The translations under genes were made by a program, and so were the position numbers. 44,176 nucleotides of DNA from Candidatus Iainarchaeum sp. (GTDB lineage: Archaea; Iainarchaeota; Iainarchaeia; Iainarchaeales; JAZDFD01): NCBI GenBank assembly GCA_043808155.1, contig JAZDFD010000006.1, positions 1-44,176 on the forward strand, given 5' to 3'. Below the pieces are notes generated by a model, which was given only the letters and a program-made list of their open reading frames with translations, was not told where the DNA came from and did not search any database. Each line of letters opens with the position of its first letter. The first letter of the stretch is position 1. Positions 5,846-39,172 of the stretch are shown here, in pieces.

Positions 5846-8800
5846 ATGGGAATAGGACAGAACATAAAAGATTTGTATTTCTCACTAGAAGAGAAGTATT
5901 ACGGTGTTTTAGATAAGATTGACACAAAAATTCCGATTTATAAAGTCATAAATCCAATTGACAAAGTTTTCCCTTCATTTGTTCTTGTTATTATTCTTTT
6001 TTTAGCATTGATTCTGGGGATCATATTAATGATGATTCCGCCAATGGGAGTGCAGCAATTCACTGATGTTACTTTCAGGATTGAAAACAATTCAGGAAAC
6101 AGACTAAGCGGATTGGAAGTTTATTACAATTATGGAATAGAAGGAACCACTGTAACAACAAACAATGAAGGTGAATTTACAATAGTTCAAATTCCGCTAG
6201 ATTCAATTCTTGAAATTAATATTGTAGCTGGTGTTGTGAATGGGAAAGAATACAACGGAGTTGAGAAAAGTTATACTGTTGATGAATATTTCTCAGGAGA
6301 TACAATAATTCTTTTAGAAAAAAGCACTGGTCCGACAAAAGTTGATATTTACATTACTGACATGTCAGGTAATAGGATAATTGGAAAAAACATTGAAGTT
6401 CTGCTTTCATGTGAAAATAGTTATGTTGTACCTGTACCAAGTATTGTAAGAGACACCGACAATGACGGGAAAATTAGTGTGGATGTTCCACAGAACTGCG
6501 GAACAATGCGGGCAACAATTTCTGCAACAGGTTATATTACTGAAATGTTCGTGCTTTTATCAGCGAGCAGAACAGTTAAATTGAGTGCAAAGGAACCATC
6601 AAAAGGTTCTTTGAAAGTGCGTGTAAGAGATGACTCAGGAATTTTAGTAGAGGATGCTGATTTTGTAATTACATTATATGATTCAGCAGACATTTATGTT
6701 AATTCAAAACACACTCTGGATTACGGAGAAGTTACATTCACTGAGTTGATGCCGGGAACTTATTCTGTTATAGGATATGATACTGACTCACGGTATTCAA
6801 CAGATTCGGAAGACGATATTTACATTGGTTCAGGAAGCACGGAAGAAGTTACATTAGTTGTAACTGGAGGGCCAAGTGGCGGATTTATTGGACCTGATGG
6901 TAAATGGCACGAATCAATTGGAATATTAGAAGTTGAAGTTATTGATAATTTAAATGGAGAAAGAATCAAAAACGCAAATGTTGAACTTAGACTAACTGAA
7001 ACAGATGTACTTATTGAGGAAAGAAATACAGGTGATGACGGAGAAATTGTTAAGTTCCCAATTACAGAGGATTTAGGATTTACATTAGTTGCTTCACATG
7101 AAAATTATCATTATGAGATTGTTGAGGTTAGTGATTTAAATAAACTAGTAGTCATTGAGCTTGAGAAAATCACTCCTGAAAATTCAGGAATTGTGAAAAT
7201 ACATGTGATTGACGAAGATGATATCGCTGTTGAAAATGCAAAAGTAGTTCTGAGATTTTTAGACAATGGCACGTTAGCACCATACAATTACAAAGTAACT
7301 GACAACAACGGATTTGTTGAATTTAAAGGTGTTAAACCAGGTTCATACTATGCTTATGCAACCAAATATCATTCATACGGAGACAATATTGAAGACGGCA
7401 AAGAAATTGATGTAAAAGAAATTACGGAATTCACTGTGCGTATTGAAATCGGAGATACTGATTTTTCAATTACTGCACATGATGAAGACTTTGAATTAGT
7501 AGAGGATACTGAAGCAGAATTCTTTACAGTATTCGGGGAAAGTCTGGGCGTGATTCCATTAAGTGACGGAACAGGAACTCACAAACTGAAATCAGACAAG
7601 GAAGTTTATGTTGTTATAAGTCACGATGATTACATTGATGTGCAGACTCTGACGTATGACTTGTGGCCTGATACAGTAATTGATATTGATGCAACATTAA
7701 AACCCACGTATTACGGAAATCCAAAAATTAAATTATTGGGGGTTTTCTTTGATGACTTTGCAGTTGAAATGCTGGAAGCAGGTCAGATTTATGAGGTTGT
7801 ATTTGAAGTTACGATTCCTGAAAATGCAGATTATGATGAATTTGGAATTCATTTAAGAGCAGGGGATGATGAACCATTTGAAAACACACCAGTAGTGATA
7901 AAACGTGCAAATACCCCAAATGCAGTTATAATCAAGGGAACAAAATATACTCCCCCAAACGGTTATGCAATTGACCATGCACCTGAAAATATGGTTGATG
8001 AAAAAGATGATGGAAAATGGATTAATATCATTAATGAAAATCCAAAAAGCAGAGTTTACACTTATTCAGTAAAAATTAAAGTAAAACCTGAAATTCAGGA
8101 ATATACAGATATGGTTTTGCATTACAGGGCATGGTTTAAGGATGGCGACAGATACATCAGAGACCCGACTGATGATGTTTTGGGAGAGAATGCAAATGTT
8201 AAAGAGAAACAGGCATTATACGCAAACACATATGAGAAACTTTATTCTGAAGGAAGACCTCCGCTTTGTGAGCAGGAATTCTGTTATGGGAATGAAGAAG
8301 TTTTGGATTTGGAAACAGATGAGCTCTATCTCATAGAACCATATCTCTTGAAGATTTATGCGGAATATGAATTAGGATTTGATTTGACAAATGATTCTGA
8401 TACGGTTTATGAAAATGCAGAACTTTACATTTTAGCAATGGAAGATGGAATTGGAAGTGATGTTCTTGAAATTAAAGGATATGAATTTACAAATGCAGAC
8501 ACAATGAAATTCTCAGAATCAGGAATTGCTTTGAACAGCATTGAAAAACTTCCTTTGGGGGAGTTTATAAAAGGAAAAACAGTTTCAATGAAAAGTCTGG
8601 TGTTTGAACCTAAATCCCTGGGAAGTTCTGAATTTGAAGTGAGAATTATTTCCGGAGGAAAAATAATCTATTCACACCTGATAAAATTTTCAGTTGTTAG
8701 TAATCAAACAATGATAATTAGATTAGAACCTGAAGTTATTCCTGCATACATACCAAATCAGTTCATAATTACAGTAACTGCAGAGGAAAATGAACTTCCA

Positions 8801-11800
8801 ATCGAAGGTGCATACATTACACTTACTAAAACAAATCCTAATCACGTAGATGGAGATTCATTTGAAGCAGAAACAAATGAACGGGGAATTGCAGTTATAC
8901 TTGATCAGGAGTTATCTGACCCCGGAACTAAAATAAAGGTTGAAGCTCAGAAATTGGGATATTGGGCAGAACCAGTTACAGCAGAAATAAGTGAAGACAT
9001 TATTTCAATTGAACCAGAAGAAGTTTCAGCATCTGTTACGCCTGATGATGGTCCGACATATGTTGATTTTTCATTTGAGAATAAAGTCGGCATTGATTTG
9101 AAATTTTCAGAACTTTCACTTACAGGAAATGATGAATTTGGTTATTTCTTAGAGTTAGAAGGAATGAAATATTATCTGGAAAAGTGGACTGTTAATGATT
9201 TCATTACTGCAATGGAAACTGATACATTTGATTCTTTCCTGAAAATACAGTTCAGAGACAGCAGTCTGAATGACCTGAAGAAAACTGAAAATGCGAAAGG
9301 CATACTAACAATTACTTTTACAAAGAAGGGAGTAGGAGGACCATGGACTTTTGAGGTTCCAGTAAATGTTACTATTTCACCTGCGGGAATGCCTGATAAT
9401 GAGGGCTGTCTGCAGATTGTCGGTCCTAAAACATGGGATACATTTACTGAAGGCAGCGAAGCTAAAATGGACTTCGAAATAGAAAATCATTGCATAAGAA
9501 ACACAAAAGATATTGAGCTGGATAATATTCAGGCAATGGTTAAATGGAAAGGTTCACGCATGGGTTACGTTGAACTTACTATTGAGGGAAATTCAAATGT
9601 TTTAGTAGATAATACATGGACAAGAGCTTACGGAACTATTGAAGGTGGAGACTCACTCAATGCCTTATTGAGATTCATACCAAATGAGGGCTTTGAGGGT
9701 GAAACTGCACAATTTACTGTTTTCATTGACAGTGCTTTTGGAATGGGTGCATCTGATGAAAAAGAAATGATAAACAATAAAGCAGAATTTATTGAATCAA
9801 CTGTGACAATTGCGAATTTGGAGACATGCATTAAATATCTGGATAAGAGCGAGCAAGAATTTACAAAATTGGTTATTGCAAAGGATGATTCTGATGGGGC
9901 AGTTGAATTTAAAATTAATATTGAGGAATGCGGAGCAACAGATGTAAAATTTATTCTTTGCAAAGGAGATTCACATTGTAACGGCGGGGCAGAAGGGGGA
10001 ATTGAATTAACTCCGAATGAAAATCAGATGTTTACAGTAACTTCAGACTATCCAAACAGTGAATACATAACAGTTGAAAGAGAAAGCATTCCTGGAATGT
10101 ATGGTATTCCAGTTTATGCAACAACTCCGGGTGGAACAACAAGAAAAGTTGCATTAATTGATGTTGAAGTCGAACCTGAAACAGGAGAATATTTCAGATT
10201 AGATAAATATGAATTAAATTTAAGTGAGAAGGGAGATTATGAAGCTGTTGATTTGGTTAATGAAATGTATATTGAAAACGTAACTGTCCACGCAAACTAC
10301 TGCAGCTGGAAAGAAGCCGCAAATAACGATAAAACAATGGACTGGATTTTGAAGGGTGCGTCTATTGGCGCAGTATTTGGTAGTTCTGCAGCAATAATAA
10401 CTGCAATGGGTATTGGTGCATGGGCAGGTCCAGTCGGGATTCTCCTCGGTGGACTAATAGGCTTGCTTTTTTCATTGTTCGGATGCCACGGATGTGAATG
10501 CAAATACAAGCAAGGCACACTAAATGATTATGTGATAAATTTATCAGGTGGGGATAATGAAATTGCTAAATTTTTAGACAGTGATCTAATAGATGATTTT
10601 AACATAAGTTGGTCTACAGGAAATCCAAAATACGGATCCGAACCAGAACATGCAAGTGAAACTGTTGCTTTGGTAATTGAAAAAACATCAGATTATGAAG
10701 ATGTTAAGCCAACTTATACAACAATGCAGGTTAGTGCAAAAGAACACATACACAAAGATGAAACACATGCAATTGAAAATCCAGAAGAAGGAAGCGCGGA
10801 TGTTTACTGTCGTAATGGTAACTTTGGAGCTTTGAATATTGGCGAAAGTGCAGAGGAAGGTTCTTGTGATGATATAAGCGAAAAAACGCATACACAAAAA
10901 TTCCATATGAAAATTAATACAAGTCAATATGAAGAAATAGTTGCGCCACCTACAAATGCGCAGAAATGTTCACAGGGAACACTGAAGGGTTATACTGGTG
11001 CAAATGCATTACCAAAAACAGAATTGAATTGGAGCTGGAATCTTAATGCAGATGCATGTGATTACAAAGAAGCAGGTAATGAAAATTACATTTACTGTGA
11101 TGCAACTCAGTTTAGTATTGCATTTACAAAGAAAATGATGCAGTTAGAAGAGTTCTTAGCACACAATGGGCAATTCAGCTGCCCCCAAAACTGGATGATG
11201 ATAGGCCTACAAAACTCACTTGGAGATGAAAATGATAAGACACGTAGAAGATCTGTAACAAAAGACAAAATAGGTCTTGAAGAAATAACTGAAACAATAA
11301 ACGGAAACACTGTTGATTTTATAATTAAAGTAACAAATAAAACATCTGCTCAGCAGACTGCAACTGTTACACTGACAGTAAATGATCAAGGCGGGGGCGA
11401 TAAATTCAGTAGAACATGTGAAAAGGGAATCACTCTTGAAAAAGGTAAAAGCGGAGAAGTTTATTGTAACATTCCAAATGTCCCAGAAACAGAAAAAATG
11501 TATATTGCATATGCAAATATTGATTCTGAAACAACAGATAATGTTGAAAATACAGAAGAGGGACATTTATTAGGAATTTCATTTATAATATGGCCTGAAC
11601 AGAACGAATGCTTTGTTGCAAAAACAACAATTCCATTTGACGGAACTCCGACAATTGAATATTTCATAAATAAAAATAATCCAAAATACGGACAGTACGT
11701 AATTCAGGAAAGTGTGCAATGGAGAGATTTCAGTGTTGAGGGTTCGCAATGGGAGACTGTTCAGACAAATAGTCAAGGAACGGAAGATATTCAAGGAATG

Positions 11801-13051
11801 GACGATGTTATTAACTGGCTGAGAAGTGTGACTCAGTTTAAGGCATATTTAATGAAAGACGGATATAGTCAGGATTTCAGAGAAGACTTTGTTGAATACT
11901 ACACGCTTAATTCATTTATGGATGCACCAGCTGATTTCCATATAAGGTCTGGAGGAAACTGGGCGGATTACTTTGAAGATAATGAAAAACTGGAGATTAT
12001 GAGAAAAAACATAAACAATGGGAGTGGGAAATATACTTTGCAAAGTCCAGGGCTTTATGAAATTGATGTTGAGATTGACTTCGGAGATGACTGGACATTC
12101 TTTGAAAATGGACAACCAAAAGCAGATATTGACTTAATAATGCACAATATTGCAAAACCTTCGAGAGCGAGTCCGTTCTACAGCTTGCCATTGAATGGTA
12201 ATGTGGGATTAGATTCAGATAATGGACGGCAAGGATATGGTGTTAATTATGAAAATGCGAATGATGTGATTTCAATTGCAAGCGCAGGTTCTGGGAATGA
12301 ACTTATTTCAACAAGCGAAATTGAAAATCCAAATGCATTAGTAACTGTTAATACTGAAGTTAATGATAATTTCAAAACAATAAACAGTATTCCTGCAACA
12401 AGAGGGATTTTACTTTCATTAAATGAAAATAATCTTACATTTTCACCTAATTATGCAACACCTGTTCTTATGAAAGTGCACAGTGAAGTTACAAATAATC
12501 CATTCAGCGCAATTTATATTGTGAAGGAAAATGAAACTCCAAAAGATGTCGGAAGTATAATGACTTACTGGAACGGCGAAGGTCAGTGCCTTGACTTTTC
12601 GGGGGATTCTGTTTCAACTGCATTCAGAAACAGAGCTGACAGTGAAACAAACGCAGAAGATATTGTGGATATGTGGGAAGATGCGTATAAAATCTCATGG
12701 GTGAACGGAGTGGAAATTAAGGGGGATGTTTATCTGAAAAGTGTGTTCTATACACCTATTTCCAATGTCTATGAACTAACTGAAATCGGAGAAACAGATG
12801 TTTCATTTATCTCCCCAAACGGAGGACCAAACCCCACAATAGCACTTAGAGGGATTAGCGGAACTGCAAACAATGACCAGTCAGGAAATCAGAATGTGAG
12901 CTCAATTGCAGAACTATTTACAATGGTGAGCAATGAGGAAGTCTGCATTACAAACGATGATGGCATTGAAACTAAATTCTGGTGGAATCCAATACATATT
13001 GGCGAAGTAGAAGGCTATGCAAACGCAGGTATTACCTGTGTTCAGAATTAA
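5846..13051 (+). CDS. Giant (2401 aa) N-terminally membrane-anchored surface protein with tandem Ig-like domains
   Basis: N-terminal TM helix (FVLVIILFLALILGIILMM), repeated VENAKV/T-x-x-x-G beta-sandwich motifs, internal Gly-rich hydrophobic hairpin. Confidence 0.9.
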   Translation: MGIGQNIKDLYFSLEEKYYGVLDKIDTKIPIYKVINPIDKVFPSFVLVIILFLALILGIILMMIPPMGVQQFTDVTFRIENNSGNRLSGLEVYYNYGIEGTTVTTNNEGEFTIVQIPLDSILEINIVAGVVNGKEYNGVEKSYTVDEYFSGDTIILLEKSTGPTKVDIYITDMSGNRIIGKNIEVLLSCENSYVVPVPSIVRDTDNDGKISVDVPQNCGTMRATISATGYITEMFVLLSASRTVKLSAKEPSKGSLKVRVRDDSGILVEDADFVITLYDSADIYVNSKHTLDYGEVTFTELMPGTYSVIGYDTDSRYSTDSEDDIYIGSGSTEEVTLVVTGGPSGGFIGPDGKWHESIGILEVEVIDNLNGERIKNANVELRLTETDVLIEERNTGDDGEIVKFPITEDLGFTLVASHENYHYEIVEVSDLNKLVVIELEKITPENSGIVKIHVIDEDDIAVENAKVVLRFLDNGTLAPYNYKVTDNNGFVEFKGVKPGSYYAYATKYHSYGDNIEDGKEIDVKEITEFTVRIEIGDTDFSITAHDEDFELVEDTEAEFFTVFGESLGVIPLSDGTGTHKLKSDKEVYVVISHDDYIDVQTLTYDLWPDTVIDIDATLKPTYYGNPKIKLLGVFFDDFAVEMLEAGQIYEVVFEVTIPENADYDEFGIHLRAGDDEPFENTPVVIKRANTPNAVIIKGTKYTPPNGYAIDHAPENMVDEKDDGKWINIINENPKSRVYTYSVKIKVKPEIQEYTDMVLHYRAWFKDGDRYIRDPTDDVLGENANVKEKQALYANTYEKLYSEGRPPLCEQEFCYGNEEVLDLETDELYLIEPYLLKIYAEYELGFDLTNDSDTVYENAELYILAMEDGIGSDVLEIKGYEFTNADTMKFSESGIALNSIEKLPLGEFIKGKTVSMKSLVFEPKSLGSSEFEVRIISGGKIIYSHLIKFSVVSNQTMIIRLEPEVIPAYIPNQFIITVTAEENELPIEGAYITLTKTNPNHVDGDSFEAETNERGIAVILDQELSDPGTKIKVEAQKLGYWAEPVTAEISEDIISIEPEEVSASVTPDDGPTYVDFSFENKVGIDLKFSELSLTGNDEFGYFLELEGMKYYLEKWTVNDFITAMETDTFDSFLKIQFRDSSLNDLKKTENAKGILTITFTKKGVGGPWTFEVPVNVTISPAGMPDNEGCLQIVGPKTWDTFTEGSEAKMDFEIENHCIRNTKDIELDNIQAMVKWKGSRMGYVELTIEGNSNVLVDNTWTRAYGTIEGGDSLNALLRFIPNEGFEGETAQFTVFIDSAFGMGASDEKEMINNKAEFIESTVTIANLETCIKYLDKSEQEFTKLVIAKDDSDGAVEFKINIEECGATDVKFILCKGDSHCNGGAEGGIELTPNENQMFTVTSDYPNSEYITVERESIPGMYGIPVYATTPGGTTRKVALIDVEVEPETGEYFRLDKYELNLSEKGDYEAVDLVNEMYIENVTVHANYCSWKEAANNDKTMDWILKGASIGAVFGSSAAIITAMGIGAWAGPVGILLGGLIGLLFSLFGCHGCECKYKQGTLNDYVINLSGGDNEIAKFLDSDLIDDFNISWSTGNPKYGSEPEHASETVALVIEKTSDYEDVKPTYTTMQVSAKEHIHKDETHAIENPEEGSADVYCRNGNFGALNIGESAEEGSCDDISEKTHTQKFHMKINTSQYEEIVAPPTNAQKCSQGTLKGYTGANALPKTELNWSWNLNADACDYKEAGNENYIYCDATQFSIAFTKKMMQLEEFLAHNGQFSCPQNWMMIGLQNSLGDENDKTRRRSVTKDKIGLEEITETINGNTVDFIIKVTNKTSAQQTATVTLTVNDQGGGDKFSRTCEKGITLEKGKSGEVYCNIPNVPETEKMYIAYANIDSETTDNVENTEEGHLLGISFIIWPEQNECFVAKTTIPFDGTPTIEYFINKNNPKYGQYVIQESVQWRDFSVEGSQWETVQTNSQGTEDIQGMDDVINWLRSVTQFKAYLMKDGYSQDFREDFVEYYTLNSFMDAPADFHIRSGGNWADYFEDNEKLEIMRKNINNGSGKYTLQSPGLYEIDVEIDFGDDWTFFENGQPKADIDLIMHNIAKPSRASPFYSLPLNGNVGLDSDNGRQGYGVNYENANDVISIASAGSGNELISTSEIENPNALVTVNTEVNDNFKTINSIPATRGILLSLNENNLTFSPNYATPVLMKVHSEVTNNPFSAIYIVKENETPKDVGSIMTYWNGEGQCLDFSGDSVSTAFRNRADSETNAEDIVDMWEDAYKISWVNGVEIKGDVYLKSVFYTPISNVYELTEIGETDVSFISPNGGPNPTIALRGISGTANNDQSGNQNVSSIAELFTMVSNEEVCITNDDGIETKFWWNPIHIGEVEGYANAGITCVQN

Positions 13052-22390: not shown

Positions 22391-23368
22391 ATGCTGGGAG
22401 AGTTTGACTTATTAGATTTGCATAATAGTGACGATATTGTACTTCGGAGATGTATTCGCGCATATACTATTATTCCAAAATATGTGAAAAATCCAACTGA
22501 AAAGAATTTCAAGGCGCAGAAAATTGTTAAGATTTTAAGACAAATAAATTCTAAGCTTAGAAAAGAAATTGGGCTGAGTTGGAAAGATCAATGGATTGAT
22601 AAATTACCTTTTGAAATGAAACGAACAAGTCCAAAAGAATGGTTTTTAGGAAGGGCTTCAATACCCTTAATTGCAATAACTAAACTAAATGAATTTGGTT
22701 GTGAAACAGAAGTTGAAGAAATCAAAAAACATCTAGATTATTTGTGTAGCACAACAGGTACTGTTGCAAAAAGTCCTAAAAAAGTTTCAAAAGAACTTGC
22801 TTGGTTTGTTGCAACAATACTTTGTGATGGGCATATGACAAAAAATGAAAGTAGACTTAGTTTTAGCTTAAGCGATAAACAATTAATTAAAAAAATTGGC
22901 GGGGTTTTTAACAAACTTTTTGAACTTGAAGGTCGGACTGTCAAAATCAAAGATAAACCGCAGTGTGTAAAACCACAATATGGATTGGATGGTAACAACA
23001 AAATTATTATTCGTTTTCTAAATAAATTTTGTGAGATTCCCGTGGGTAAAAAATGCGATATTATACTTGTGCCCGAAATAATTAAACAAGCACCACCAGA
23101 AATCAAAAGAGCATTTTTAAAAGGAGTTTTTGATACCGACGGAGGAAAACGGAGTGGTGGTCTAGGTTTAACAAGTGCATCAAAAAAATTCAGGGATCAA
23201 AACCTTGAGCTTCTTAAAGAATTCGGTATTAAATCTTACAAAGACGAATGGATCAATAAGCTATATAATAAAAAGTATTATGGTCTCAAATTTAAAATAG
23301 ACTCAAATTCAGAATTTTTATGCAGGCGTCGGATAGTGGCAATTCCGTCAGGTTTAGGGGAGTATTAA
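22391..23368 (+). CDS. Free-standing two-motif LAGLIDADG homing endonuclease-family protein
   Basis: LAWFVATILCDG and AFLKGVFDTDGG motifs; 3' end reads into tRNA-Leu. Confidence 0.85.
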   Translation: MLGEFDLLDLHNSDDIVLRRCIRAYTIIPKYVKNPTEKNFKAQKIVKILRQINSKLRKEIGLSWKDQWIDKLPFEMKRTSPKEWFLGRASIPLIAITKLNEFGCETEVEEIKKHLDYLCSTTGTVAKSPKKVSKELAWFVATILCDGHMTKNESRLSFSLSDKQLIKKIGGVFNKLFELEGRTVKIKDKPQCVKPQYGLDGNNKIIIRFLNKFCEIPVGKKCDIILVPEIIKQAPPEIKRAFLKGVFDTDGGKRSGGLGLTSASKKFRDQNLELLKEFGIKSYKDEWINKLYNKKYYGLKFKIDSNSEFLCRRRIVAIPSGLGEY

Positions 23369-23440
23369 GTCGTTTTTGATTTTTATTCTGAAACACCTGA
23401 TCCCTTAGTGGGTTCGCAGGTTCGAGTCCTGCCGCCTGCA
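23322..23440 (+). tRNA. tRNA-Leu(TAG) with 36-nt canonical 37/38 intron (23359..23394)
   Basis: GCAGGCG/CGCCTGC acceptor stem, long variable arm. BHB: TTTA/TGAA helix, bulges GG|G and AC|A. Confidence 0.92.
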
Positions 23441-29295: not shown

Positions 29296-30315
29296 TTATC
29301 TTATATCCGAGTTTTGTTTTGTTACCTTAGTTGCATAAGGGTCTAGCTGATTAATACGTGCATTTGGCCCTCCGCGATAATATCCTGAAAGCAGATTATT
29401 GAAGTTTGTGCTTGAACCTTTGCGTCTTATTTCAAGTTCGTGGCTTATTATTTCATCATGCGCAATTGAAAGCATCATGTTTAATTTCAAATCGTTTTTC
29501 AGGAGAGTTCTTAAGTTTGCAGTTGAGATTGAGTCGGAAATTTTTGCAATGATTTCATCTCTGAAAGGAAAATTTTTATCTGCAAGTGCTTGTCGTCTAA
29601 TCATCTTTGTAGATGACGGCATTATTTGTGTTATGCCTAATGCACCAGTCTTTGAAACTGCCTGCCAGTTTCCGTTGCTTTCTGTCAGAATTCTTTTTAC
29701 AAACATTTCAAAATATTCAGCTAATTTTTCCGGGGTGAATCCCCGTATCTGTGAGTATTGTCTGCATAATTCAAATGCAGTTGGCAGAACAATTAACATT
29801 GTTTGTGCTCTTGCTGCGTAATTTTCAGAACCATGTCCGTTTTTGTAAGCACTGATTCTTTGCTCTAAATTTGTTTTTAACTGTGAAAAATATTTAGTCT
29901 GTGTTGCGTAATTATTGAAATTATTAATAAGTCGTTCTGAAACTATGCACTGGGGAGTCGGAAGATGATTTATATCATTGGGAAGTTCAACATATTTAAC
30001 AGGCCTTGCAACAAGGAATTTTTCAGGAACATTCATGTCAACATCTTTCATTCTGTTAATAAAGTCCTGAGTTGCTTGTTGTGAAATTTCAGATTTCTGC
30101 ACAGGAAGTGATCTTACTCTTTCAATTCCTTTTGAAATTCCAAATCCTGCTGCAGCTGCTCCAAGCATGGCAACTGCTTTTCCTCGCCCAGTCAATGTCA
30201 ATCTTTTTTTTTGGGAGATGGGTTTTCTTGTGGGTGAAAGAATCTCACTGGCAGGTGGTAATTTTCTCCCAGTACGAAGTTTCGGTTTTGGGTAGTGGGA
30301 ATGTGGATTTGGCAT
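29296..30315 (-). CDS. Transglycosylase SLT-domain protein with membrane anchor
   Basis: TESNG...AVSKTGALGITQIMP...YYRGG SLT motifs. Start probably MPNPH (ORF track starts at 30330). Confidence 0.75.
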   Translation of the reverse strand: MPNPHSHYPKPKLRTGRKLPPASEILSPTRKPISQKKRLTLTGRGKAVAMLGAAAAGFGISKGIERVRSLPVQKSEISQQATQDFINRMKDVDMNVPEKFLVARPVKYVELPNDINHLPTPQCIVSERLINNFNNYATQTKYFSQLKTNLEQRISAYKNGHGSENYAARAQTMLIVLPTAFELCRQYSQIRGFTPEKLAEYFEMFVKRILTESNGNWQAVSKTGALGITQIMPSSTKMIRRQALADKNFPFRDEIIAKISDSISTANLRTLLKNDLKLNMMLSIAHDEIISHELEIRRKGSSTNFNNLLSGYYRGGPNARINQLDPYATKVTKQNSDIR

Positions 30316-30360
30316 AACATAATTATACACTGCATATTTAATAATTTCCCGCTCTCGAAG

Positions 30361-31656: not shown

Positions 31657-31844
31657 TTCACAAACTACGAATATTTCAAACAAACGAACATCACAAACTT
31701 TAAAAGAAGTTTCAGGGCAAATTATAATAGTACGAAAAACAGCTCAATACATTGAACAAGACTGATTCAGCCTGCCAGAGGCTTTCTTTTTCTGTTTACG
31801 AAGAAAGCATTAAAAAATCCAGAATTGTAATAATAGTGGTTTAT

Positions 31845-32522
31845 ATGAAACTGAATGATGAACTTGTGGATGCTATTGTCGATAAATACATCAAAGACGG
31901 AGATGTGATTTCTTTTGGAACTTCGAAGGCGAGTGAACAGCTGATTAAGAGAATTGCAATAAAAATCGAAGAAAAAAATGAAAAAGTGTATGTGGTTCCT
32001 TCATCTTTGAGAATGGCTTCAATTGCTTCTGATTTGGGGCTTGAAATTGTCACGCTTGATGAAAAAGAAGTTGATGTTGCAATTGAATTTGCAGAGTATG
32101 CAGACGAGCAGTTTAATTTTGTTAAGATGGATGCGAGTTCGTTAATTAAAGATAAAATGATTGGGCAGAGTGCTGCAGAACTGATTGTTATTTGTGACCA
32201 TGATAAATTTGAAAAGCGTTTGAAAGTGATTCCTTTTGAAGTTGCTTCATTCGGATGGAAAAGAACCGAGATTCAGCTGGGTGCATTAGGAAACGCAAAA
32301 TTAAGGAAACATGACGGAAAAGTTTTCAAAACTGAAACGGGAAATTATTTCATTGATGTGGAATTGGATGATGTTTATTCATTAGAAGATATTGATTATG
32401 CGACAAAAGAAATCCCCGGCGTAATTGAAACAGGACTTTTTATTGGTTATGCTGACAGATTCTTATTACACAACGGAAAAGAGATTACTGTTAAAAGCAG
32501 GCTTGATTATTCAAAACAATAG
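31845..32522 (+). CDS. Ribose-5-phosphate isomerase A-like protein, catalytic motifs degenerate
   Basis: RpiA fold motifs (VPSS, PFEV, T.TGNY, IPGVIETGLF), but SFGTSKA and EFAEY replace GLGTGST and DGADE. Confidence 0.8.
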   Translation: MKLNDELVDAIVDKYIKDGDVISFGTSKASEQLIKRIAIKIEEKNEKVYVVPSSLRMASIASDLGLEIVTLDEKEVDVAIEFAEYADEQFNFVKMDASSLIKDKMIGQSAAELIVICDHDKFEKRLKVIPFEVASFGWKRTEIQLGALGNAKLRKHDGKVFKTETGNYFIDVELDDVYSLEDIDYATKEIPGVIETGLFIGYADRFLLHNGKEITVKSRLDYSKQ

Positions 32523-32535
32523 GGGTTTGGAGAGT

Positions 32536-33177
32536 ATGCAGGACTTACAGAAAGAGAATTGCGCAAAGAAGGCAATGGAATTAGTTAAGGACGGAATGGT
32601 TATTGGGTTAGGGAGCGGAAGTACGTTAGTTTATTTCACACGCTTTCTTGGACACTCAAACTTAAATGTAAAAGTGGTTGTTAGTTCCAAGCAAATTCTA
32701 AAAGTTGCAGAAGAAGTTGGTTTAGAAATTGTTGATTTTGAAAGTGTAGATAAAATTGATTTAGCAGTTGATGGTGCAGATCAGGTTGACAAGGAATTTA
32801 ATTTGTTGAAAGGTCTTGGTGCATTTGCAGTTGTGGGGGAAAAGAAATTAGATTATTTTGCAGAAAAATGCGTTATTGTTGTTGATGAAAGTAAAATTTC
32901 TAATGTTCTTGATAGGAATGTTATTTTAGAAATTAATCCTCACAAACTTGAGAGTGTTAAAAAAGCGCTCATGAATTTTGATTGTAAAATTGTGAAAGAA
33001 ACCATGCATGAGGGAAATTCAGTTGTTTTTTTGGATTTTGGAGTTATTAAAAATTCAGCTGAATTAGAGCAAAGAATTGATGCAATTGATGGTGTTAATG
33101 GCAATGGAATCTTTGCTAATTTTAAGCAGCCAATTGATGTGATTGTAGGCAAAAATCAGGGTGCGGAATTCCTCTGA
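32536..33177 (+). CDS. rpiA: Ribose-5-phosphate isomerase A
   Basis: GLGSGST, DLAVDGADQVD, KGLGA...EK. Confidence 0.85.
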   Translation: MQDLQKENCAKKAMELVKDGMVIGLGSGSTLVYFTRFLGHSNLNVKVVVSSKQILKVAEEVGLEIVDFESVDKIDLAVDGADQVDKEFNLLKGLGAFAVVGEKKLDYFAEKCVIVVDESKISNVLDRNVILEINPHKLESVKKALMNFDCKIVKETMHEGNSVVFLDFGVIKNSAELEQRIDAIDGVNGNGIFANFKQPIDVIVGKNQGAEFL

Positions 33178-33444: not shown

Positions 33445-34173
33445 CTATTTAACATAGCCTTTCTCGAGCCATGCTTCTAGTTTCTTCAAATTTTTAGGAT
33501 TAGAGAAACCAATCGAATCAACCCATCTTCCAAGGTTTTTCTTCCCAGAAATATAAACTCTGTTTATAAAACACATTGTCCCATTGCTAGCCACACCAGG
33601 CTTATCATATTGAACACATGTTGTAAATCCCATATTCAATAAAATTTCATTTACTTGTTCTATTAATCTTCTACTCTTACTTGCTATATCGATCCTTGGA
33701 TAATATTTTATTTTTTTGTATTTTTTCTGAAACTGCAAACAACCATCAGTATCAATCAATCCCCGTAAAAAATCACTAACAAAATCCGACTTTAATACAC
33801 AATCAGGAATTTGTATTTTATTTTTCGACCCAATAGGAAACCCTAACGCTTTTTTGAACTGAAGTAATACTTTCGAACTGTAAACAAGTTGAAGACAGTC
33901 CTTTTTCTCATAAATTTTCGTATCTAAGTTATAGACTTTTTTCATCAATTTTTTTAGATGTTTGACATAATCTAACTCGTCTTTTCCAGATGAAATAGTA
34001 TAGTTTATAATATTTCTATGAGGCAATCTATACAAATACAGTCCTCCGTCTCCAACATGAATTCCAAACTCCTCTGCTAATTCAGCACTCATTTCTCTTG
34101 GAAATTTAATTCCTTTTTTCCTATCAACTGAAGAAAAACTAATTCTTGAAATATCAACCAACTCTTTATCCAT
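33445..34173 (-). CDS. Free-standing two-motif LAGLIDADG homing endonuclease-family protein
   Basis: LAEEFGIHVGDG and FLRGLIDTDG; stop codon 4 nt from the tRNA-Met 3' end. Confidence 0.9.
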   Translation of the reverse strand: MDKELVDISRISFSSVDRKKGIKFPREMSAELAEEFGIHVGDGGLYLYRLPHRNIINYTISSGKDELDYVKHLKKLMKKVYNLDTKIYEKKDCLQLVYSSKVLLQFKKALGFPIGSKNKIQIPDCVLKSDFVSDFLRGLIDTDGCLQFQKKYKKIKYYPRIDIASKSRRLIEQVNEILLNMGFTTCVQYDKPGVASNGTMCFINRVYISGKKNLGRWVDSIGFSNPKNLKKLEAWLEKGYVK

Positions 34174-35230: not shown

Positions 35231-35293
35231 ATGCGAGCGAGGACAAACCCATAGCGCAAAGCGTATGGGTTCAACTCAAGGTTGTGGCCTTGT
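35231..35293 (+). repeat. Structured tRNA-Glu 5' leader
   Basis: Begins ATGCGA like the Arg leader; CCCATA/TATGGG and CAAGG/CCTTG hairpins; ACTCAAG shared with the Arg leader. Confidence 0.6.
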
Positions 35294-35366
35294 GCCCCTG
35301 TAGTGTAATGGTTAAGCATTCTGGCTTCTCAAGCCAGCGATTTGGGTTCGAATCCCGGCGGGGGCA
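35294..35366 (+). tRNA. tRNA-Glu(CTC)
   Basis: GCCCCTG/CGGGGGC, anticodon arm CTGGC-TTCTCAA-GCCAG. Confidence 0.95.
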
Positions 35367-35377
35367 TGATTAATACA

Positions 35378-35546
35378 TTGCTATTGAGCGAACAAAGTGA
35401 GCATGTGGCACTTCAGTGCCACTCGTACTAGCCGGACGTGTCGGCTTTCGAATCCCGGCAGGGGCATAAAATACAGTGCTACCGAAGGTGCACAGATCAT
35501 AGCCGAGTCTTTTCGTTTTAGTGCTATTGAGCGAAGCGAAAAGTAC
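35378..35546 (+). repeat. tRNA-linked hairpin modules including a duplicated tRNA-Glu 3' end (35447..35466)
   Basis: TGCTATTGAGCGAA x2, GCCGGACGTGTCGGC, TTCGAATCCCGGCAGGGGCA, AGTGCTACCGAAGGTGCAC. Confidence 0.8.
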
Positions 35547-35616: not shown

Positions 35617-36048
35617 ATGATGAACAAAAGAATGCTGGTTGCAGGAGTTCTTTCAATTATTAATCTATTTTTATTATATGTTTCTATATTTGTAATTGGG
35701 TTATATATTTTACCAGGGCAGTTTCTTACTTTTTTTCCTTTAATTGTGGGGGGAATTGTTTATTACTGGGCTAATAAAAAAAGAAAATATGATACATTGA
35801 AATCATTTATTTACTTTAATATAGCATTCTTTTTGTCTTTTATAATTCCATTTGGGGCGCTTGTGTTAATCTATGTTCTTACTGCCCCAATAATTAGGCC
35901 CATGTATGGGGTTGAGCCAATGTACGGAGTTCCAATGCCTGCTCCAGAGTATGGTGTTGGGGCAATTACAGGTACAGTTTTGTTTGGATTTAAAGCTAGA
36001 ATTTATTTAATAATGGATTCAATTAAGAAACTTTTTAGAAAGATTTAA
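35617..36048 (+). CDS. Membrane protein with three PxYGV motifs; candidate radical SAM substrate
   Basis: RPMYGVEPMYGVPMPAPEYGV following TM helices; directly upstream of the rSAM gene. Confidence 0.75.
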   Translation: MMNKRMLVAGVLSIINLFLLYVSIFVIGLYILPGQFLTFFPLIVGGIVYYWANKKRKYDTLKSFIYFNIAFFLSFIIPFGALVLIYVLTAPIIRPMYGVEPMYGVPMPAPEYGVGAITGTVLFGFKARIYLIMDSIKKLFRKI

Positions 36049-36073
36049 TAGACTTTTATATTCAATTGTTTTT

Positions 36074-37123
36074 ATGAACTCAATTATAAGAAATAATTAC
36101 GGACTTATTAATCACAATATTTACAAAATTAAGAACAAACTTTCAATTCTTGATGGCCCTACTTATGTTCAATGGCTTGCAACCCATGATTGCAATTATT
36201 CATGCGCTCATTGCGGCACAAGTGCGGGAAAAGCCTTGAAAGATGAATTAACAACTAATGAAATAAAAAAAGTTATTGAAGATATGGGCGAAATGGGTGT
36301 AAAACTTCTTTCGGTAACTGGAGGAGAACCACTTTTGAGAAAAGATTTGTTTGAAATGTTACATTTGGCAAAAAGTAAAGGAATGCATGTTGGGTTTGTT
36401 ACCAATGGTTCTTTAGTTTCAAAATATAAAAAAGAAATCAAAGAACTGGAACCATATTCAATGATGGTGAGTATTGATGGAATTAAAGAAACACATAATT
36501 TTTTGAGAGGTAATGAAGCACATTTTGATAAATCTATAGAAGCAGTTGAATTTTTTAATAAAATTAATGTGCCTATTGTGAGCATTGCAACAACAGTAAA
36601 TAAGAAAAATTTAAATGAATTAGAAGAATTAAAAAAAATTGTAATGACTTCGGGTGCAACACATTGGAGAATTAATATTGCAATTCCTGAAGGCCGTGCA
36701 AAAGATAAAGATTGGATGCAACTAAATGATGATGAATTGAGACAATTGTTTGAATTTATTAAGAAAACTAAGGGTGAATTCAATATTGAAATTTGTGAAG
36801 GTGCTGGTTATTTGGGAAAATTAGATAAAGACTTAAGAAAAATGCCATTCTTTTGCGGGTGTGGGTGGAATACATTTACTATAATGGCAAATGGATATGT
36901 TATGGGCTGCCCCATTTTTGAAAATCAAGAAGAGTTAAGTGAAGGAAATGTGAGGCAAAACTCAATAAAAGAAATTTGGGAAAATAAATTTGAGAGATTT
37001 AGAAATCTTCAATTAGATGAAACATGTAATAGTTGCAATAACGTAAATGCATGTAGAGGCGGCTGTTGGATGATGAGACTATTTGATGCTCATTGTTTAA
37101 AAGAAACATGGGAAACATACTAA
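36074..37123 (+). CDS. Radical SAM/SPASM domain protein
   Basis: CNYSCAHC, TGGEP, SIDG, SPASM C...GC...CxxCxxxxxCRGGC. Confidence 0.93.
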   Translation: MNSIIRNNYGLINHNIYKIKNKLSILDGPTYVQWLATHDCNYSCAHCGTSAGKALKDELTTNEIKKVIEDMGEMGVKLLSVTGGEPLLRKDLFEMLHLAKSKGMHVGFVTNGSLVSKYKKEIKELEPYSMMVSIDGIKETHNFLRGNEAHFDKSIEAVEFFNKINVPIVSIATTVNKKNLNELEELKKIVMTSGATHWRINIAIPEGRAKDKDWMQLNDDELRQLFEFIKKTKGEFNIEICEGAGYLGKLDKDLRKMPFFCGCGWNTFTIMANGYVMGCPIFENQEELSEGNVRQNSIKEIWENKFERFRNLQLDETCNSCNNVNACRGGCWMMRLFDAHCLKETWETY

Positions 37124-37236
37124 AAACTAAATTATTTTTTGACTACCAACAAGGGCATAATACCGATAAGCATTGTGGGGGGGTGCTAGTATGCAAGGTA
37201 TTGATTTTTAAAGTTGTAGAAGCTGATTCTAAGTAT

Positions 37237-37824
37237 ATGGCAGACAGCACAATTTACAAAATAAAGGAAAAAGTTGGTTCGATTATTGATTCTGGCGCAC
37301 ATATTAATATTGCAAAAACAACTCAGGAAATTGGAAAAATTTTTGGACTAAATGAAAGAATGAGAAATTATACTCATATTGAAATAAGGAACAAATTAAA
37401 TGAATTCACATACAAGACTGTGCCTTATAACAAAAGAATTCTTTTTCTCCCTCATTGTCTGAAAGTTGCAGGAGTTTGCAAAGCACCACTTACAGATGAA
37501 GGTTTGAATTTAGATTTTTGCGATAAATGTGAAGCAGCAGACCAATGCCAGATTAATGAAATCAAAAAGATAGCTGAAGAAATGAAATATATGAAAATAG
37601 CAGTTGCACCCGGGGGAAGTATGGTTCACAAAATAATTGCGAAATACAAACCAAAAGCGGTTTTAGGTGTTTGCTGTTATAATGAAGCAATAATGGCATT
37701 TGAAAAAATCAAAGGAAAGAATATGGGCGCGCAAGCAGTTTTATTAATGCGTGATGGTTGTAAAGATACAGCAGTTAATGTTGATGAAGTTAAAGAAAAA
37801 TTAGAGTTGTGCAAGAATGAATAA
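37237..37824 (+). CDS. DUF116-family Cys-rich protein
   Basis: ILFLPHCL...C...CxxC...C.I, PGGS, GVCC, GC.DT. Start MADST preferred. Confidence 0.8.
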   Translation: MADSTIYKIKEKVGSIIDSGAHINIAKTTQEIGKIFGLNERMRNYTHIEIRNKLNEFTYKTVPYNKRILFLPHCLKVAGVCKAPLTDEGLNLDFCDKCEAADQCQINEIKKIAEEMKYMKIAVAPGGSMVHKIIAKYKPKAVLGVCCYNEAIMAFEKIKGKNMGAQAVLLMRDGCKDTAVNVDEVKEKLELCKNE

Positions 37825-38542
37825 AATGAATCTAGGAAAGCATAAGAATTTGATAATTATTTCAGCAATAATTTTAGTTCTTGTTTTAATTAATGCAATG
37901 CTTTTATTGTATCCGGGTTTAATCAGCATAGTGAATCCATATGCAGATGATTTGAGTAACTATAAAACATTCAGCACACAAATACACTATTCAGTTCAGG
38001 CTCTTTTAGCAGATTCAGAAGGAACTTTAATTGATAATGAGGATTATTTGTTTTTACCGGATGACCAAAGAATAATCAGGGATGCAATTAATGATTCTGC
38101 AAGAGAAGATGTAATGTGGATTGCATTAAAGGAAAATGAATATTTTGAAGCGATTGACAATGCTACTTCAAAAGAGGAAGCGTATTCTTTTGCGCATAAG
38201 GAAGCTGCACTTTATTACATATCTGAAGGATATATTTCAACTCTTAATGTTTTTGCAATGCAGGACAGCAGTGATGACAAAGACATTATGGATGACGTCA
38301 TTCAGAATGCAGAAACATTTAAAGAATCGATTAAGATTGCAGATTTTCTTGGAGAAGAATTTGAAATTCCTGAAGGCATGAACTTTGACAGAGCGCTTTT
38401 CAAGCAGGAAGCTCTGAATGTTATGGCTGAATTTTTAGAACTGAGAAAAATTAAATATGACGATGCGGAATATCTTTCACACGAAAGAAAATTTGTAGAA
38501 GCTGAGAAATTAATTTCACTTTATTTTTTATTCACTAATTAG
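37817..38542 (+). CDS. Membrane-anchored hypothetical protein
   Basis: N-terminal TM helix, acidic helical body. Confidence 0.8.
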   Translation: MNKMNLGKHKNLIIISAIILVLVLINAMLLLYPGLISIVNPYADDLSNYKTFSTQIHYSVQALLADSEGTLIDNEDYLFLPDDQRIIRDAINDSAREDVMWIALKENEYFEAIDNATSKEEAYSFAHKEAALYYISEGYISTLNVFAMQDSSDDKDIMDDVIQNAETFKESIKIADFLGEEFEIPEGMNFDRALFKQEALNVMAEFLELRKIKYDDAEYLSHERKFVEAEKLISLYFLFTN

Positions 38543-39172
38543 TTCAATTGGGGAAATCATTTTTAGAATTTCATCTGCGGATAGTTCCCCAAGTGTTATT
38601 CCTTTGCAAACAACAACGCCTTTGTCAGGAAGTGTTTTCCAGTGTTTCAGGAAACCTTCTTTTTTTACACTTTCGAAATAATTGAAAATTTCTTTGTAAT
38701 GTTCTTCTCCGTGAGCATCAATTTCGTAAAAAGTCTTAACATGCAGTGTTTTGCAGAAGGGATAAATTTTTGTGAAATCAGGATTTTTTTCATATGAGAT
38801 AAAGGGGAAAAATTTACATTGCGCTGGTTTTGACTTATGTACTTTGCATAATTGATTTTCAAGGAAAATGCAGAACTCGTCTTTTTTTAATGCAAGAGTT
38901 GGAAGTACTAAAACAAAATTAGGGAGTTCATTTAATTGAGTTTTTAACGCATCTGCAATTTGTTTTGGAAGAAAGTCAGTGCTTATTTTGAGTTTGTTCT
39001 TGGAAAACTCTGCTGGAAAAAGCTGAATAAAAATTGTGCAGTAATTTTTAAGAAATTCTTCTTCAGAAATTTTAAGTTCTGAAGCCATATTTTTGGCGTC
39101 TTCGGGGAGTAGCGTAATCCAGTATTTTTCACAGCACTCAGTGCAGTTTAGGGATTTGCAGTCAATTTCCAT
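38528..39172 (-). CDS. YkgJ/CxxCxxCC family Cys-cluster protein
   Basis: C...CTECC; CIFL....C.VH..KP.QC.FFP. Confidence 0.85.
   Translation of the reverse strand: MEIDCKSLNCTECCEKYWITLLPEDAKNMASELKISEEEFLKNYCTIFIQLFPAEFSKNKLKISTDFLPKQIADALKTQLNELPNFVLVLPTLALKKDEFCIFLENQLCKVHKSKPAQCKFFPFISYEKNPDFTKIYPFCKTLHVKTFYEIDAHGEEHYKEIFNYFESVKKEGFLKHWKTLPDKGVVVCKGITLGELSADEILKMISPIELISE

Follow-up and report, generated by a model that had tools for sequence, protein, structure and literature searches.

What a radical S-adenosylmethionine (SAM) enzyme with a SPASM domain might do in an archaeon, immediately downstream of a gene for a small membrane protein in which the motif Pro-x-Tyr-Gly-Val occurs three times, is the question raised by two genes of Candidatus Iainarchaeum sp. 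The window analysed is the whole 44,176-nt stretch formed by positions 1 to 44,176 of the forward strand of contig JAZDFD010000006.1 (GenBank assembly GCA_043808155.1), and the pair occupies positions 35617 to 37123 (Table 1). The original prediction for this locus had read the two genes as a Tyr-modifying system acting on a membrane-embedded substrate, akin to those for peptides made by ribosomes and modified after translation (RiPPs). Comparative genomics and docking support such a modification of the membrane protein, and the two genes are very probably an enzyme and its substrate. The chemistry is a matter that we infer: the pair most likely makes alpha-keto-beta-amino acids by excision of tyramine, an assignment that is made by analogy with known enzymes and given about an even chance.

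The gene pair and its products

The upstream gene encodes a protein of 143 aa in which the motif stretch reads PMYGV-E-PMYGV-PMPA-PEYGV in translation, the wider segments being LTAPIIRPMYGVEPMYGVPMPAPEYGVGAITG and APIIRPMYGVEPMYGVPMPAPEYGVGAITG. The Pro, Tyr and Gly codons vary synonymously between the three units, as had been noticed originally. Hydropathy analysis gave two helices with a short LPGQ turn in the stretch 4-40, running on to about residue 51, a K/R-rich loop at residues 52-63 (5 K+R) and a third helix within residues 61-97; the YG loop, residues 90-116, follows helix 3, in agreement with the placement of the motifs in a loop after transmembrane (TM) helices. Residues 117-135 form a weaker hydrophobic or amphipathic segment, and a K/R-rich tail completes the protein, which contains no Cys and ends in ...LFRKI. 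By the positive-inside rule the YG loop would face outside. No family was found for this protein in Pfam or NCBIfam, even at E ≤ 10. Across the whole 1.08-Mb genome the tripeptide YGV occurs 73 times in 412,557 residues of open reading frames (ORFs), a frequency of 1.8e-4, and at least three YG within 20 residues are found in only 3 of 2369 ORFs of at least 50 aa, the membrane protein among them.

The second gene follows 25 nt downstream, as had been claimed, and the arrangement of two co-oriented genes with so short a spacer is consistent with one transcript. The encoded enzyme matches Radical_SAM (PF04055, 1.4e-23) and SPASM (PF13186, 3.3e-11, residues 261-322). The three Cys of its CX3CX2C motif (THDCNYSCAHCGT) and all seven Cys of the SPASM region are invariant in an alignment of 27 homologs, and the latter would be enough for two auxiliary 4Fe-4S clusters. 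As the CX3CX2C motif starts already at C40, there is no room for an N-terminal RiPP recognition element (RRE) domain. Homologs of the enzyme include 12 clusters at 62-68% identity and others at 41-54%; among the homologs, P0021 comes from Patescibacteria and P0026 from Planctomycetota.

Seventy-seven NCBIfam families matched the enzyme, and the best of them lie well below their cut-offs. The highest score was for TIGR04133 (208.8 bits, cut-off 425), followed by the MftC model TIGR03962 (169.1 bits, cut-off 265); the PlpX-family model TIGR04103 was fourth of the 77 (3.3e-41, 141 bits, cut-off 725), and the WgkB model NF050035 gave 127.6 bits (cut-off 650). The nearest named families also include heme and cofactor maturases (NirJ2, AhbD). 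No triceptide-enzyme model was among the best 25 of the 77 families, and in the control genomes TIGR04103 gave no match above its cut-off.

Homologs of the membrane protein

A word-based search with the single partner sequence recovered the query alone, and phmmer against 1.84 billion representatives returned 10 proteins at E ≤ 0.001, namely the query, eight true homologs and one spurious match. The spurious one, a 629-aa repeat protein (P0122), matched the YG loop alone and was dismissed as low-complexity chance. A profile search with the partner family gave 17 proteins at E ≤ 0.01, self included. Altogether, 19 distinct partner homologs (P0123-P0141) were inspected. The three-helix build is common to all 19, and in 13 of them X-Y-G stands just after helix 3, with X being M, L, E, V or K, in the forms AMYGV, ALYGV...PEYGV, VEYGV, LEYGV, AVYGA, PMYGM and VKYGV. 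Look-alikes of the partner in the ESM Atlas, all scoring below 0.9, were generic membrane proteins and gave no lead.

In a 16-row alignment of the partners the conservation of Y97 and G98 is at least 90%; motif 1, the column kept across the family, is also what docks into the predicted active site (see below). A second YG at the spacing of motif 2 is present in P0124, P0128 and P0131, and the EYGV form of motif 3 recurs in P0124, P0131, P0132 and P0133. C-terminal to the motif the partners differ: most carry a twin CX3C...CX3C segment and some end there, whereas the partner in the window instead has two additional YG units and a hydrophobic helix after motif 1. A motif that is kept while its scaffold drifts is the pattern that would be expected of a modification site. 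X-Tyr-Ala sites were seen in L008 (455-787, MVVYAPPEV), P0129 (EPMYATR) and P0136 (SEYAVRMDP), and since some partners have them, Gly is not absolutely required in the family.

Conservation of the pairing

Seven partner homologs share the length of their longest contig and their source with enzyme homologs of 46-68% identity (Table 1), and for three of the seven the number of contigs agrees too. On the contigs of 1.7-2.4 kb the partner and enzyme genes must be neighbours, because together they fill most of the DNA. Another genome of the same order, G177, encodes an enzyme of 41% identity and directly upstream of it an 86-aa protein with two TM helices that ends in MVSYGPAPPNTMIEYGPAPPK. Judged from these gene contexts, the pairing of membrane protein and enzyme is not chance. 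The system is rare among the related genomes searched, the window enzyme being matched in 4 of 61 genomes of the same order at E ≤ 1e-30 and in 3 of 215 genomes of the phylum at E ≤ 1e-45, with G000 included in both counts.

That the host is an archaeon, as originally stated, is borne out by its small- and large-subunit rRNAs, both of which match archaeal Rfam models best. The genome is small (1.08 Mb, 88% complete) and the nearest named partner homologs come from metagenome-assembled genomes labelled 'Nanoarchaeota' and 'Nanobdellota'; on these three grounds the organism is taken to be a DPANN-type archaeon.

YG neighbours in the wider enzyme clade

Related radical SAM loci were collected from metagenome and genome collections, and what follows holds for the matches listed. 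Their enzymes are 24-41% identical and come from Bacteroidota, Bacillota, Myxococcota, Spirochaetota and other phyla. Immediately beside many of them a gene encodes a small protein that is exported or anchored in the membrane and contains x-Y-G-x-P. These partners are lipoproteins with ...FQAC-YG-TP..., ...EYGTP... or ...MYGVP..., proteins with a signal peptide and a C-terminal anchor that contain ...NPLYGIRTPEE... or ...VPMYGVF..., tail-anchored proteins with two ...YGPPP... units, and a Myxococcota protein with five ...LYG[VP]... units. A logo over 48 sites reads [C/M/L/E/V]-Y-G-[T/V/P/M]-P.

The original prediction had proposed that homologs of the enzyme be searched for YG-motif neighbours. 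A neighbour was counted when its gene lay on the same strand at no more than 700 nt and its product had no more than 200 aa, a hydrophobic segment and YG[VTIPMA] outside that segment. By this rule 33 of the 68 radical SAM ORFs scoring at least 125 bits in blastp against the window enzyme have a YG neighbour, compared with 2 of 130 lower-scoring SPASM ORFs. Before the length filter, 35 of the 68 ORFs in the top bins had such a neighbour on the same strand and 3 of 68 on the opposite strand, which served as control. HemB, with KY[AC]S.[FY]YGPFR, stands beside heme-type radical SAM genes and gave false YG neighbours at low scores, which were removed by the 200-aa limit.

The 146 rows of a FastTree phylogeny comprised every ORF of at least 280 aa that reached 118 bits, one in four of those scoring less, and 31 homologs from the database. 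The window clade (36 rows, support 95) and a lipoprotein-type clade corresponding to TIGR04133 (47 rows, support 99) unite in an 83-row group with support 90, in which 40 rows have a YG neighbour, 19 have none and 24 are without gene context. No row is labelled YG in a second group, of 57 heme-type and other SPASM enzymes, and of the 6 rows that belong to neither group L145 alone, on a long branch, has the label. The deep join of the window and TIGR04133 clades is no more than moderately supported, FastTree readily joining long branches.

In several bacterial relatives two or three YG-protein genes stand in tandem before one radical SAM gene (Table 1), and one enzyme may therefore serve several substrates.

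Table 1 Features of the window, tandem YG-protein genes of related loci, and partner/enzyme pairs on shared contigs.
Feature	Location (nt)	Strand	Details
Polytopic membrane-protein gene, putative substrate	35617..36048	+	ATG start, 143 aa
Three N-terminal TM helices, YG loop (residues 90-116), weakly hydrophobic C-terminal segment, K/R tail			membrane protein
Motif 1, P95-M-Y97-G98-V99	35899..35913	+	ccc atg tat ggg gtt
Motif 2, P101-M-Y103-G-V105	35917..35931	+	cca atg tac gga gtt
Motif 3, P110-E-Y112-G-V114	35944..35958	+	cca gag tat ggt gtt
Intergenic spacer, 25 nt	36049..36073	+	between the two co-oriented genes
Radical SAM/SPASM enzyme gene	36074..37123	+	349 aa; PF04055, PF13186
CX3CX2C radical SAM cluster motif	36191..36214	+	C40, C44, C47
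SPASM region	36854..37096	+	C261, C279, C318, C321, C327, C331, C341; invariant alignment columns
tRNA-Glu(CTC)	35293-35367		upstream of the membrane-protein gene
LAGLIDADG_3 ORF, free-standing	33445-34173	-	242 aa
LAGLIDADG_3 ORF, free-standing	22391-23368	+	325 aa
DUF116 protein gene	37093-37824	+	Pfam domain at residues 78-236; likely true start an internal ATG near 37237
Gene without family	37817-38542	+	241 aa, N-terminal helix
CxxCxxCC protein gene (PF03692)	38528-39172	-	convergent
Ribose-5-phosphate isomerase A genes, tandem	31752-32522; 32425-33177	+	ORF calls overlap
Giant ORF	2-5809	+	>1900 aa
Giant ORF	5846-13051	+	2401 aa
ORF with weak SLT (lytic transglycosylase) match	29296-30330	-	344 aa; 1.9e-7; in an archaeon
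Tandem YG-protein genes, L013	254-487; 538-882
Tandem YG-protein genes, L015	463-903; 914-1204; 1204-1425
Tandem YG-protein genes, L102	3010-3450; 3480-3893
Tandem YG-protein genes, L119	2973-3437; 3444-3905
Partner/enzyme pair P0132/P0003			longest contig 1738 nt
Partner/enzyme pair P0126/P0006			longest contig 2050 nt
Partner/enzyme pair P0135/P0008			longest contig 4576 nt
Partner/enzyme pair P0130/P0009			longest contig 31251 nt
Partner/enzyme pair P0138/P0012			longest contig 2041 nt
Partner/enzyme pair P0129/P0016			longest contig 2354 nt
Partner/enzyme pair P0141/P0030			longest contig 6089 nt

Predicted complex

The enzyme (27-row alignment) was modelled with partner residues 86-126 (16-row alignment), SAM and three 4Fe-4S clusters. 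The scores were 0.59, 0.89 and 0.89 (median 0.89), against 0.46, 0.01 and 0.00 for the controls. The mark applied to such scores, which 116 of 157 solved complexes and 2 of 215 mismatched pairs attain, is a rough one here, own alignments having been used and ligands included. Between the runs at least 5% of the contacts are shared. In the contacts of lowest error Y97, G98 and V99 meet the TGGE motif that binds SAM (enzyme residues 80-83), residues 109 and 129-131, and C279-P280 of the SPASM region. The model thus sets the X-Tyr-Gly site in the predicted active centre beside SAM, and it supports binding of the partner by the enzyme. The solved structures include no splicease complex; those nearest by sequence are SkfB, PqqE, SuiB, anSME and CteB, and complexes of radical SAM/SPASM enzymes with peptides have been solved for SuiB (5v1q-t), CteB (5wgg) and anSME (4k37-39).

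Relation to known systems

Mycofactocin biosynthesis offers one comparison, as MftC (TIGR03962) is likewise a SPASM enzyme acting where Tyr is next to Val and Gly. Its substrate, MftA, is short and soluble and has Val-Tyr at its end; the RRE protein MftB is required as well. In the window, by contrast, the Pfam scan found no PqqD- or RRE-like neighbour, and there is no peptide with a C-terminal Val-Tyr. The motif of the pair is compatible with the pattern of WgkB (NF050035) and the triceptide cyclophane enzymes, where an aromatic-X-X motif, often repeated, likewise stands beside a SPASM enzyme; these three-residue cross-linking maturases cross-link the aromatic-X-X motif, and their substrates are leader-bearing peptides.

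The closest likeness in mechanism may be to the tyramine spliceases. PlpX-like radical SAM/SPASM X proteins are described as cutting a tyramine equivalent out at X-Tyr-Gly and rejoining the backbone (PMC11414181, PMC11626197, PMC9811515; a further source is PMC11002830), the native splice sites being given as MYG and LYG (PMC10533398, PMC11626197) and the mass change per splice as -135.06 Da, C8H9NO (PMC11626197). According to PMC11414181, the non-cyanobacterial systems are binary, without a Y protein, and AlphaFold2 puts XYG in the active centre; proven spliceases also act on splice tags placed in carrier proteins. YG-rich neighbours of all radical SAM-SPASM proteins were mined by Scott et al. 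(2022), who reportedly found them in 189 genera and confirmed 27 enzyme-substrate pairs (as described in PMC10849128).

The window pair was compared with the spliceotide systems PlpX/PlpY/PlpA and PcpXYA of Pleurocapsa and RhaX/RhaA, RcsX/RcsA and RasX/RasA of Rheinheimera. As in these, an enzyme with a radical SAM core (CX3CX2C) and a full SPASM domain is encoded beside an adjacent, co-oriented gene, here 25 nt upstream, for a putative substrate with X-Tyr-Gly sites (MYG, MYG and EYG). As in the non-cyanobacterial types, the layout is binary, with no separate Y or RRE protein. Several sites per substrate are possible, and structure prediction likewise puts XYG at the SAM pocket (compare PMC11414181). 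The substrate is unlike spliceotide precursors in being an integral protein of three TM helices, with no leader-core build and no Nif11 or nitrile hydratase leader peptide (NHLP) type leader, and the host, unlike the bacteria of the papers cited, is a DPANN-type archaeon.

By sequence the enzyme lies nearest to TIGR04133 (rSAM_w_lipo), which is paired with TIGR04134, a radical SAM-associated putative lipoprotein; both are hypothetical equivalogs of Bacteroidota, named but uncharacterised. TIGR04133 scores are 430-585 bits for the Bacteroidota relatives, which pass the cut-off of 425, 270-377 bits for other bacterial relatives and 160-230 bits for the window clade, and two of the Bacteroidota partners, L093 and L088, match TIGR04134 at 114.5 and 82.7 bits. 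Common to both is a two-gene cassette with a membrane-anchored partner that has x-Y-G-[TVPM]-P near its anchor. Unlike the TIGR04134 lipoproteins, however, the window partner has no match to this model at E ≤ 10, no lipobox and no Cys, and it has three TM helices instead of a lipid anchor and a beta-rich domain. On this evidence from sequence the pair is a sister lineage of the TIGR04133/TIGR04134 system and not a member of it. A literature search with TIGR04133, TIGR04134 and their product names found no relevant paper, and among the papers listed for Bacteroidetes and lipoproteins none mentions a splicease. The statement that YG-motif partners are known for some bacterial radical SAM systems is sustained on both counts, as spliceases act at XYG and TIGR04134 lipoproteins carry YG.

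Proposed reaction

It is proposed that the cytoplasmic SPASM enzyme would bind the loop after helix 3 of the membrane protein and modify the X-Tyr-Gly sites MYG, MYG and EYG, probably before the loop crosses the membrane. By analogy with the tyramine spliceases, reductive cleavage of SAM would be followed by hydrogen abstraction at Tyr; a tyramine equivalent (C8H9NO, -135.06 Da) would then leave and the backbone would be rejoined. The product would be a membrane-anchored protein with up to three electrophilic ketoamides at the cell surface. We infer both when modification would occur with respect to membrane insertion and what the protein might do at the surface. The original prediction had expected a shift of -2 Da or others; the precedent in the literature predicts -135.06 Da per site, and not only -2 Da.

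Several observations weigh against this reading. As the YG loop is predicted outside while SAM and reductant are cytoplasmic, modification must precede translocation; the same timing issue arises for the bacterial lipoproteins and signal-anchored partners, whose YG sites are also predicted outside. X-Y-A replaces X-Y-G in 2 of the 19 partner homologs and 4 have neither YG nor YA, at least one of these lying on a 613-nt contig where it may be cut. The enzyme falls outside the PlpX equivalog TIGR04103/IPR026482 (141 against 725 bits), and its best matches are to the uncharacterised TIGR04133 and to MftC, which has a different Tyr/Val chemistry. The tree is without any experimentally proven splicease sequence, so that splicing is deduced from the motif and from the papers cited, and 24 of the 31 closest radical SAM homologs in it are without gene context, as the collection scans, which used generic SPASM motifs, listed relatives of 37% identity or less. 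The neighbour rule is crude and was fixed after inspection of the data, and cases that escape it include L008 (YA), L029 (whose partner has 291 aa), L127 and loci truncated at the flank. In the complex the partner has a low predicted local distance difference test (pLDDT) score of 43-53, one run reached only 0.59, and since solved peptide complexes exist, generic docking of a peptide in the barrel may be remembered by the model.

Alternative explanations

A chance motif in a spurious ORF would agree with the small size of the ORF and its lack of a Pfam or NCBIfam match, but it has next to no probability and was excluded: there are 19 homologs with the same three-TM build, Y97 and G98 are conserved, clustered YG is rare in the genome and the synonymous codons differ between the copies. 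That the pair is real and carries out other chemistry at YG is less likely than splicing; such chemistry could be a Tyr-Gly-Val/Thr/Pro C-C cross-link (cyclophane or WGK-like, -2 Da), an MftC-like step, epimerisation or hydroxylation. It would account for the limits seen beyond X-Y-G, where the position two after Tyr is confined to T/V/P/M/I/A and is then followed by Pro in 33 of 48 sites, and it accords with the scores, the model of MftC, which couples Val and Tyr, giving 169 bits against the 141 bits of PlpX, and that of WgkB, named for a W-G-K link, giving 127.6 bits. An aromatic-Gly-X pattern suits three-residue cross-linking enzymes, and the docking at Y97 fits any chemistry there. Against an MftC-like step stand the score itself (169 against a cut-off of 265) and the want of an MftB-like RRE and of a C-terminal Val-Tyr peptide; for a Tyr-Gly-Val cross-link no precedent was found. 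Against other chemistry in general, X-Tyr-Gly with X = Met or Leu is the exact native splice site as given in PMC10533398 and PMC11626197, and enrichment of YG beside radical SAM-SPASM genes is reported to have predicted splicing successfully (PMC10849128).

It is improbable that the two proteins have no substrate relation, with the YG repeats being structural or targeting elements (a turn, or a proline-rich linker) or the membrane protein tethering the enzyme. The separation of a cytoplasmic enzyme from a YG loop predicted outside would fit this explanation, YG-Pro-rich linkers can arise as low-complexity sequence, and heme and cofactor maturases (NirJ2, AhbD) are among the nearest named families; the enzyme would then have another substrate, for example a cofactor or tRNA. 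However, YG is the sole feature common to partners with three TM helices, with two, with a signal peptide and C-terminal anchor, and to the beta-rich lipoproteins. The occurrence of YG neighbours also follows the clade of the enzyme (33 of 68 compared with 2 of 130, and 0 of 57 in the heme-type group, among the matches listed), and in the complex model, which outscored every control, Y97-G98 lies at the SAM site. These observations favour an enzyme and its substrate.

Other features of the window

The tRNA-Glu repeats that had been described just upstream of the pair proved to be one tRNA-Glu(CTC) and a 21-nt copy of its 3' end, not several tRNAs. The last 21 nt of the gene (35347-35367) repeat at 35447-35467, 100 nt downstream, with 1 mismatch, and the 14-nt word TGCTATTGAGCGAA occurs at 35379-35392 and 35522-35535, 143 nt apart. 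Both repeats look like an attachment (att)-type scar of an element once integrated at the 3' end of the tRNA. Neither a third copy of the repeat nor a second tRNA-Glu was found within the window. One of the two free-standing LAGLIDADG_3 ORFs, that at 22391-23368, ends inside a 93-nt tRNA-Lys(TTT) (23348-23440), which is long enough for an intron.

The DUF116 and CxxCxxCC genes downstream of the enzyme were considered as parts of the system and rejected, as no matching neighbours are present in L168, the closest archaeal locus read; there the genes flanking the radical SAM pair differ in sequence from those flanking it in the window. The remaining features are given in Table 1.

Novelty and significance

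A radical SAM splicease with an XYG substrate is already known as a kind, and the TIGR04133/TIGR04134 pairing is named in NCBIfam. As far as checked, three points are new: the enzyme belongs to a distinct clade that no curated family covers, its putative substrate is a polytopic integral membrane protein, and the host is a DPANN archaeon. The review PMC9811515 describes the native products and natural roles of spliceotides as still elusive. By analogy, it may tentatively be suggested that the product is a genetically encoded ketoamide 'warhead' that an episymbiont displays, anchored in its membrane, at its surface. If so, it could block Ser/Cys proteases of the host or the environment, or bind a host surface protein covalently and reversibly; among spliced proteins it would be the first from an archaeon and the first that is integral to a membrane, and the whole TIGR04133-like superclade, including abundant lipoproteins of gut Bacteroidota, would make surface ketoamides.

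So far backbone splicing to beta-amino acids is known from no more than a few peptide pathways of bacteria, which were studied in heterologous hosts. What the locus suggests is that the logic of the XYG motif applies to real membrane proteins too, in archaea whose reduced genomes of about 1 Mb have few dispensable genes, and that it spans a large clade including common gut Bacteroidota. If splicing is indeed the reaction, ketoamides would have a natural use on cell surfaces, small leader-independent spliceases would be at hand for protein engineering, and the question would be raised of how a cytoplasmic radical enzyme couples to membrane insertion.

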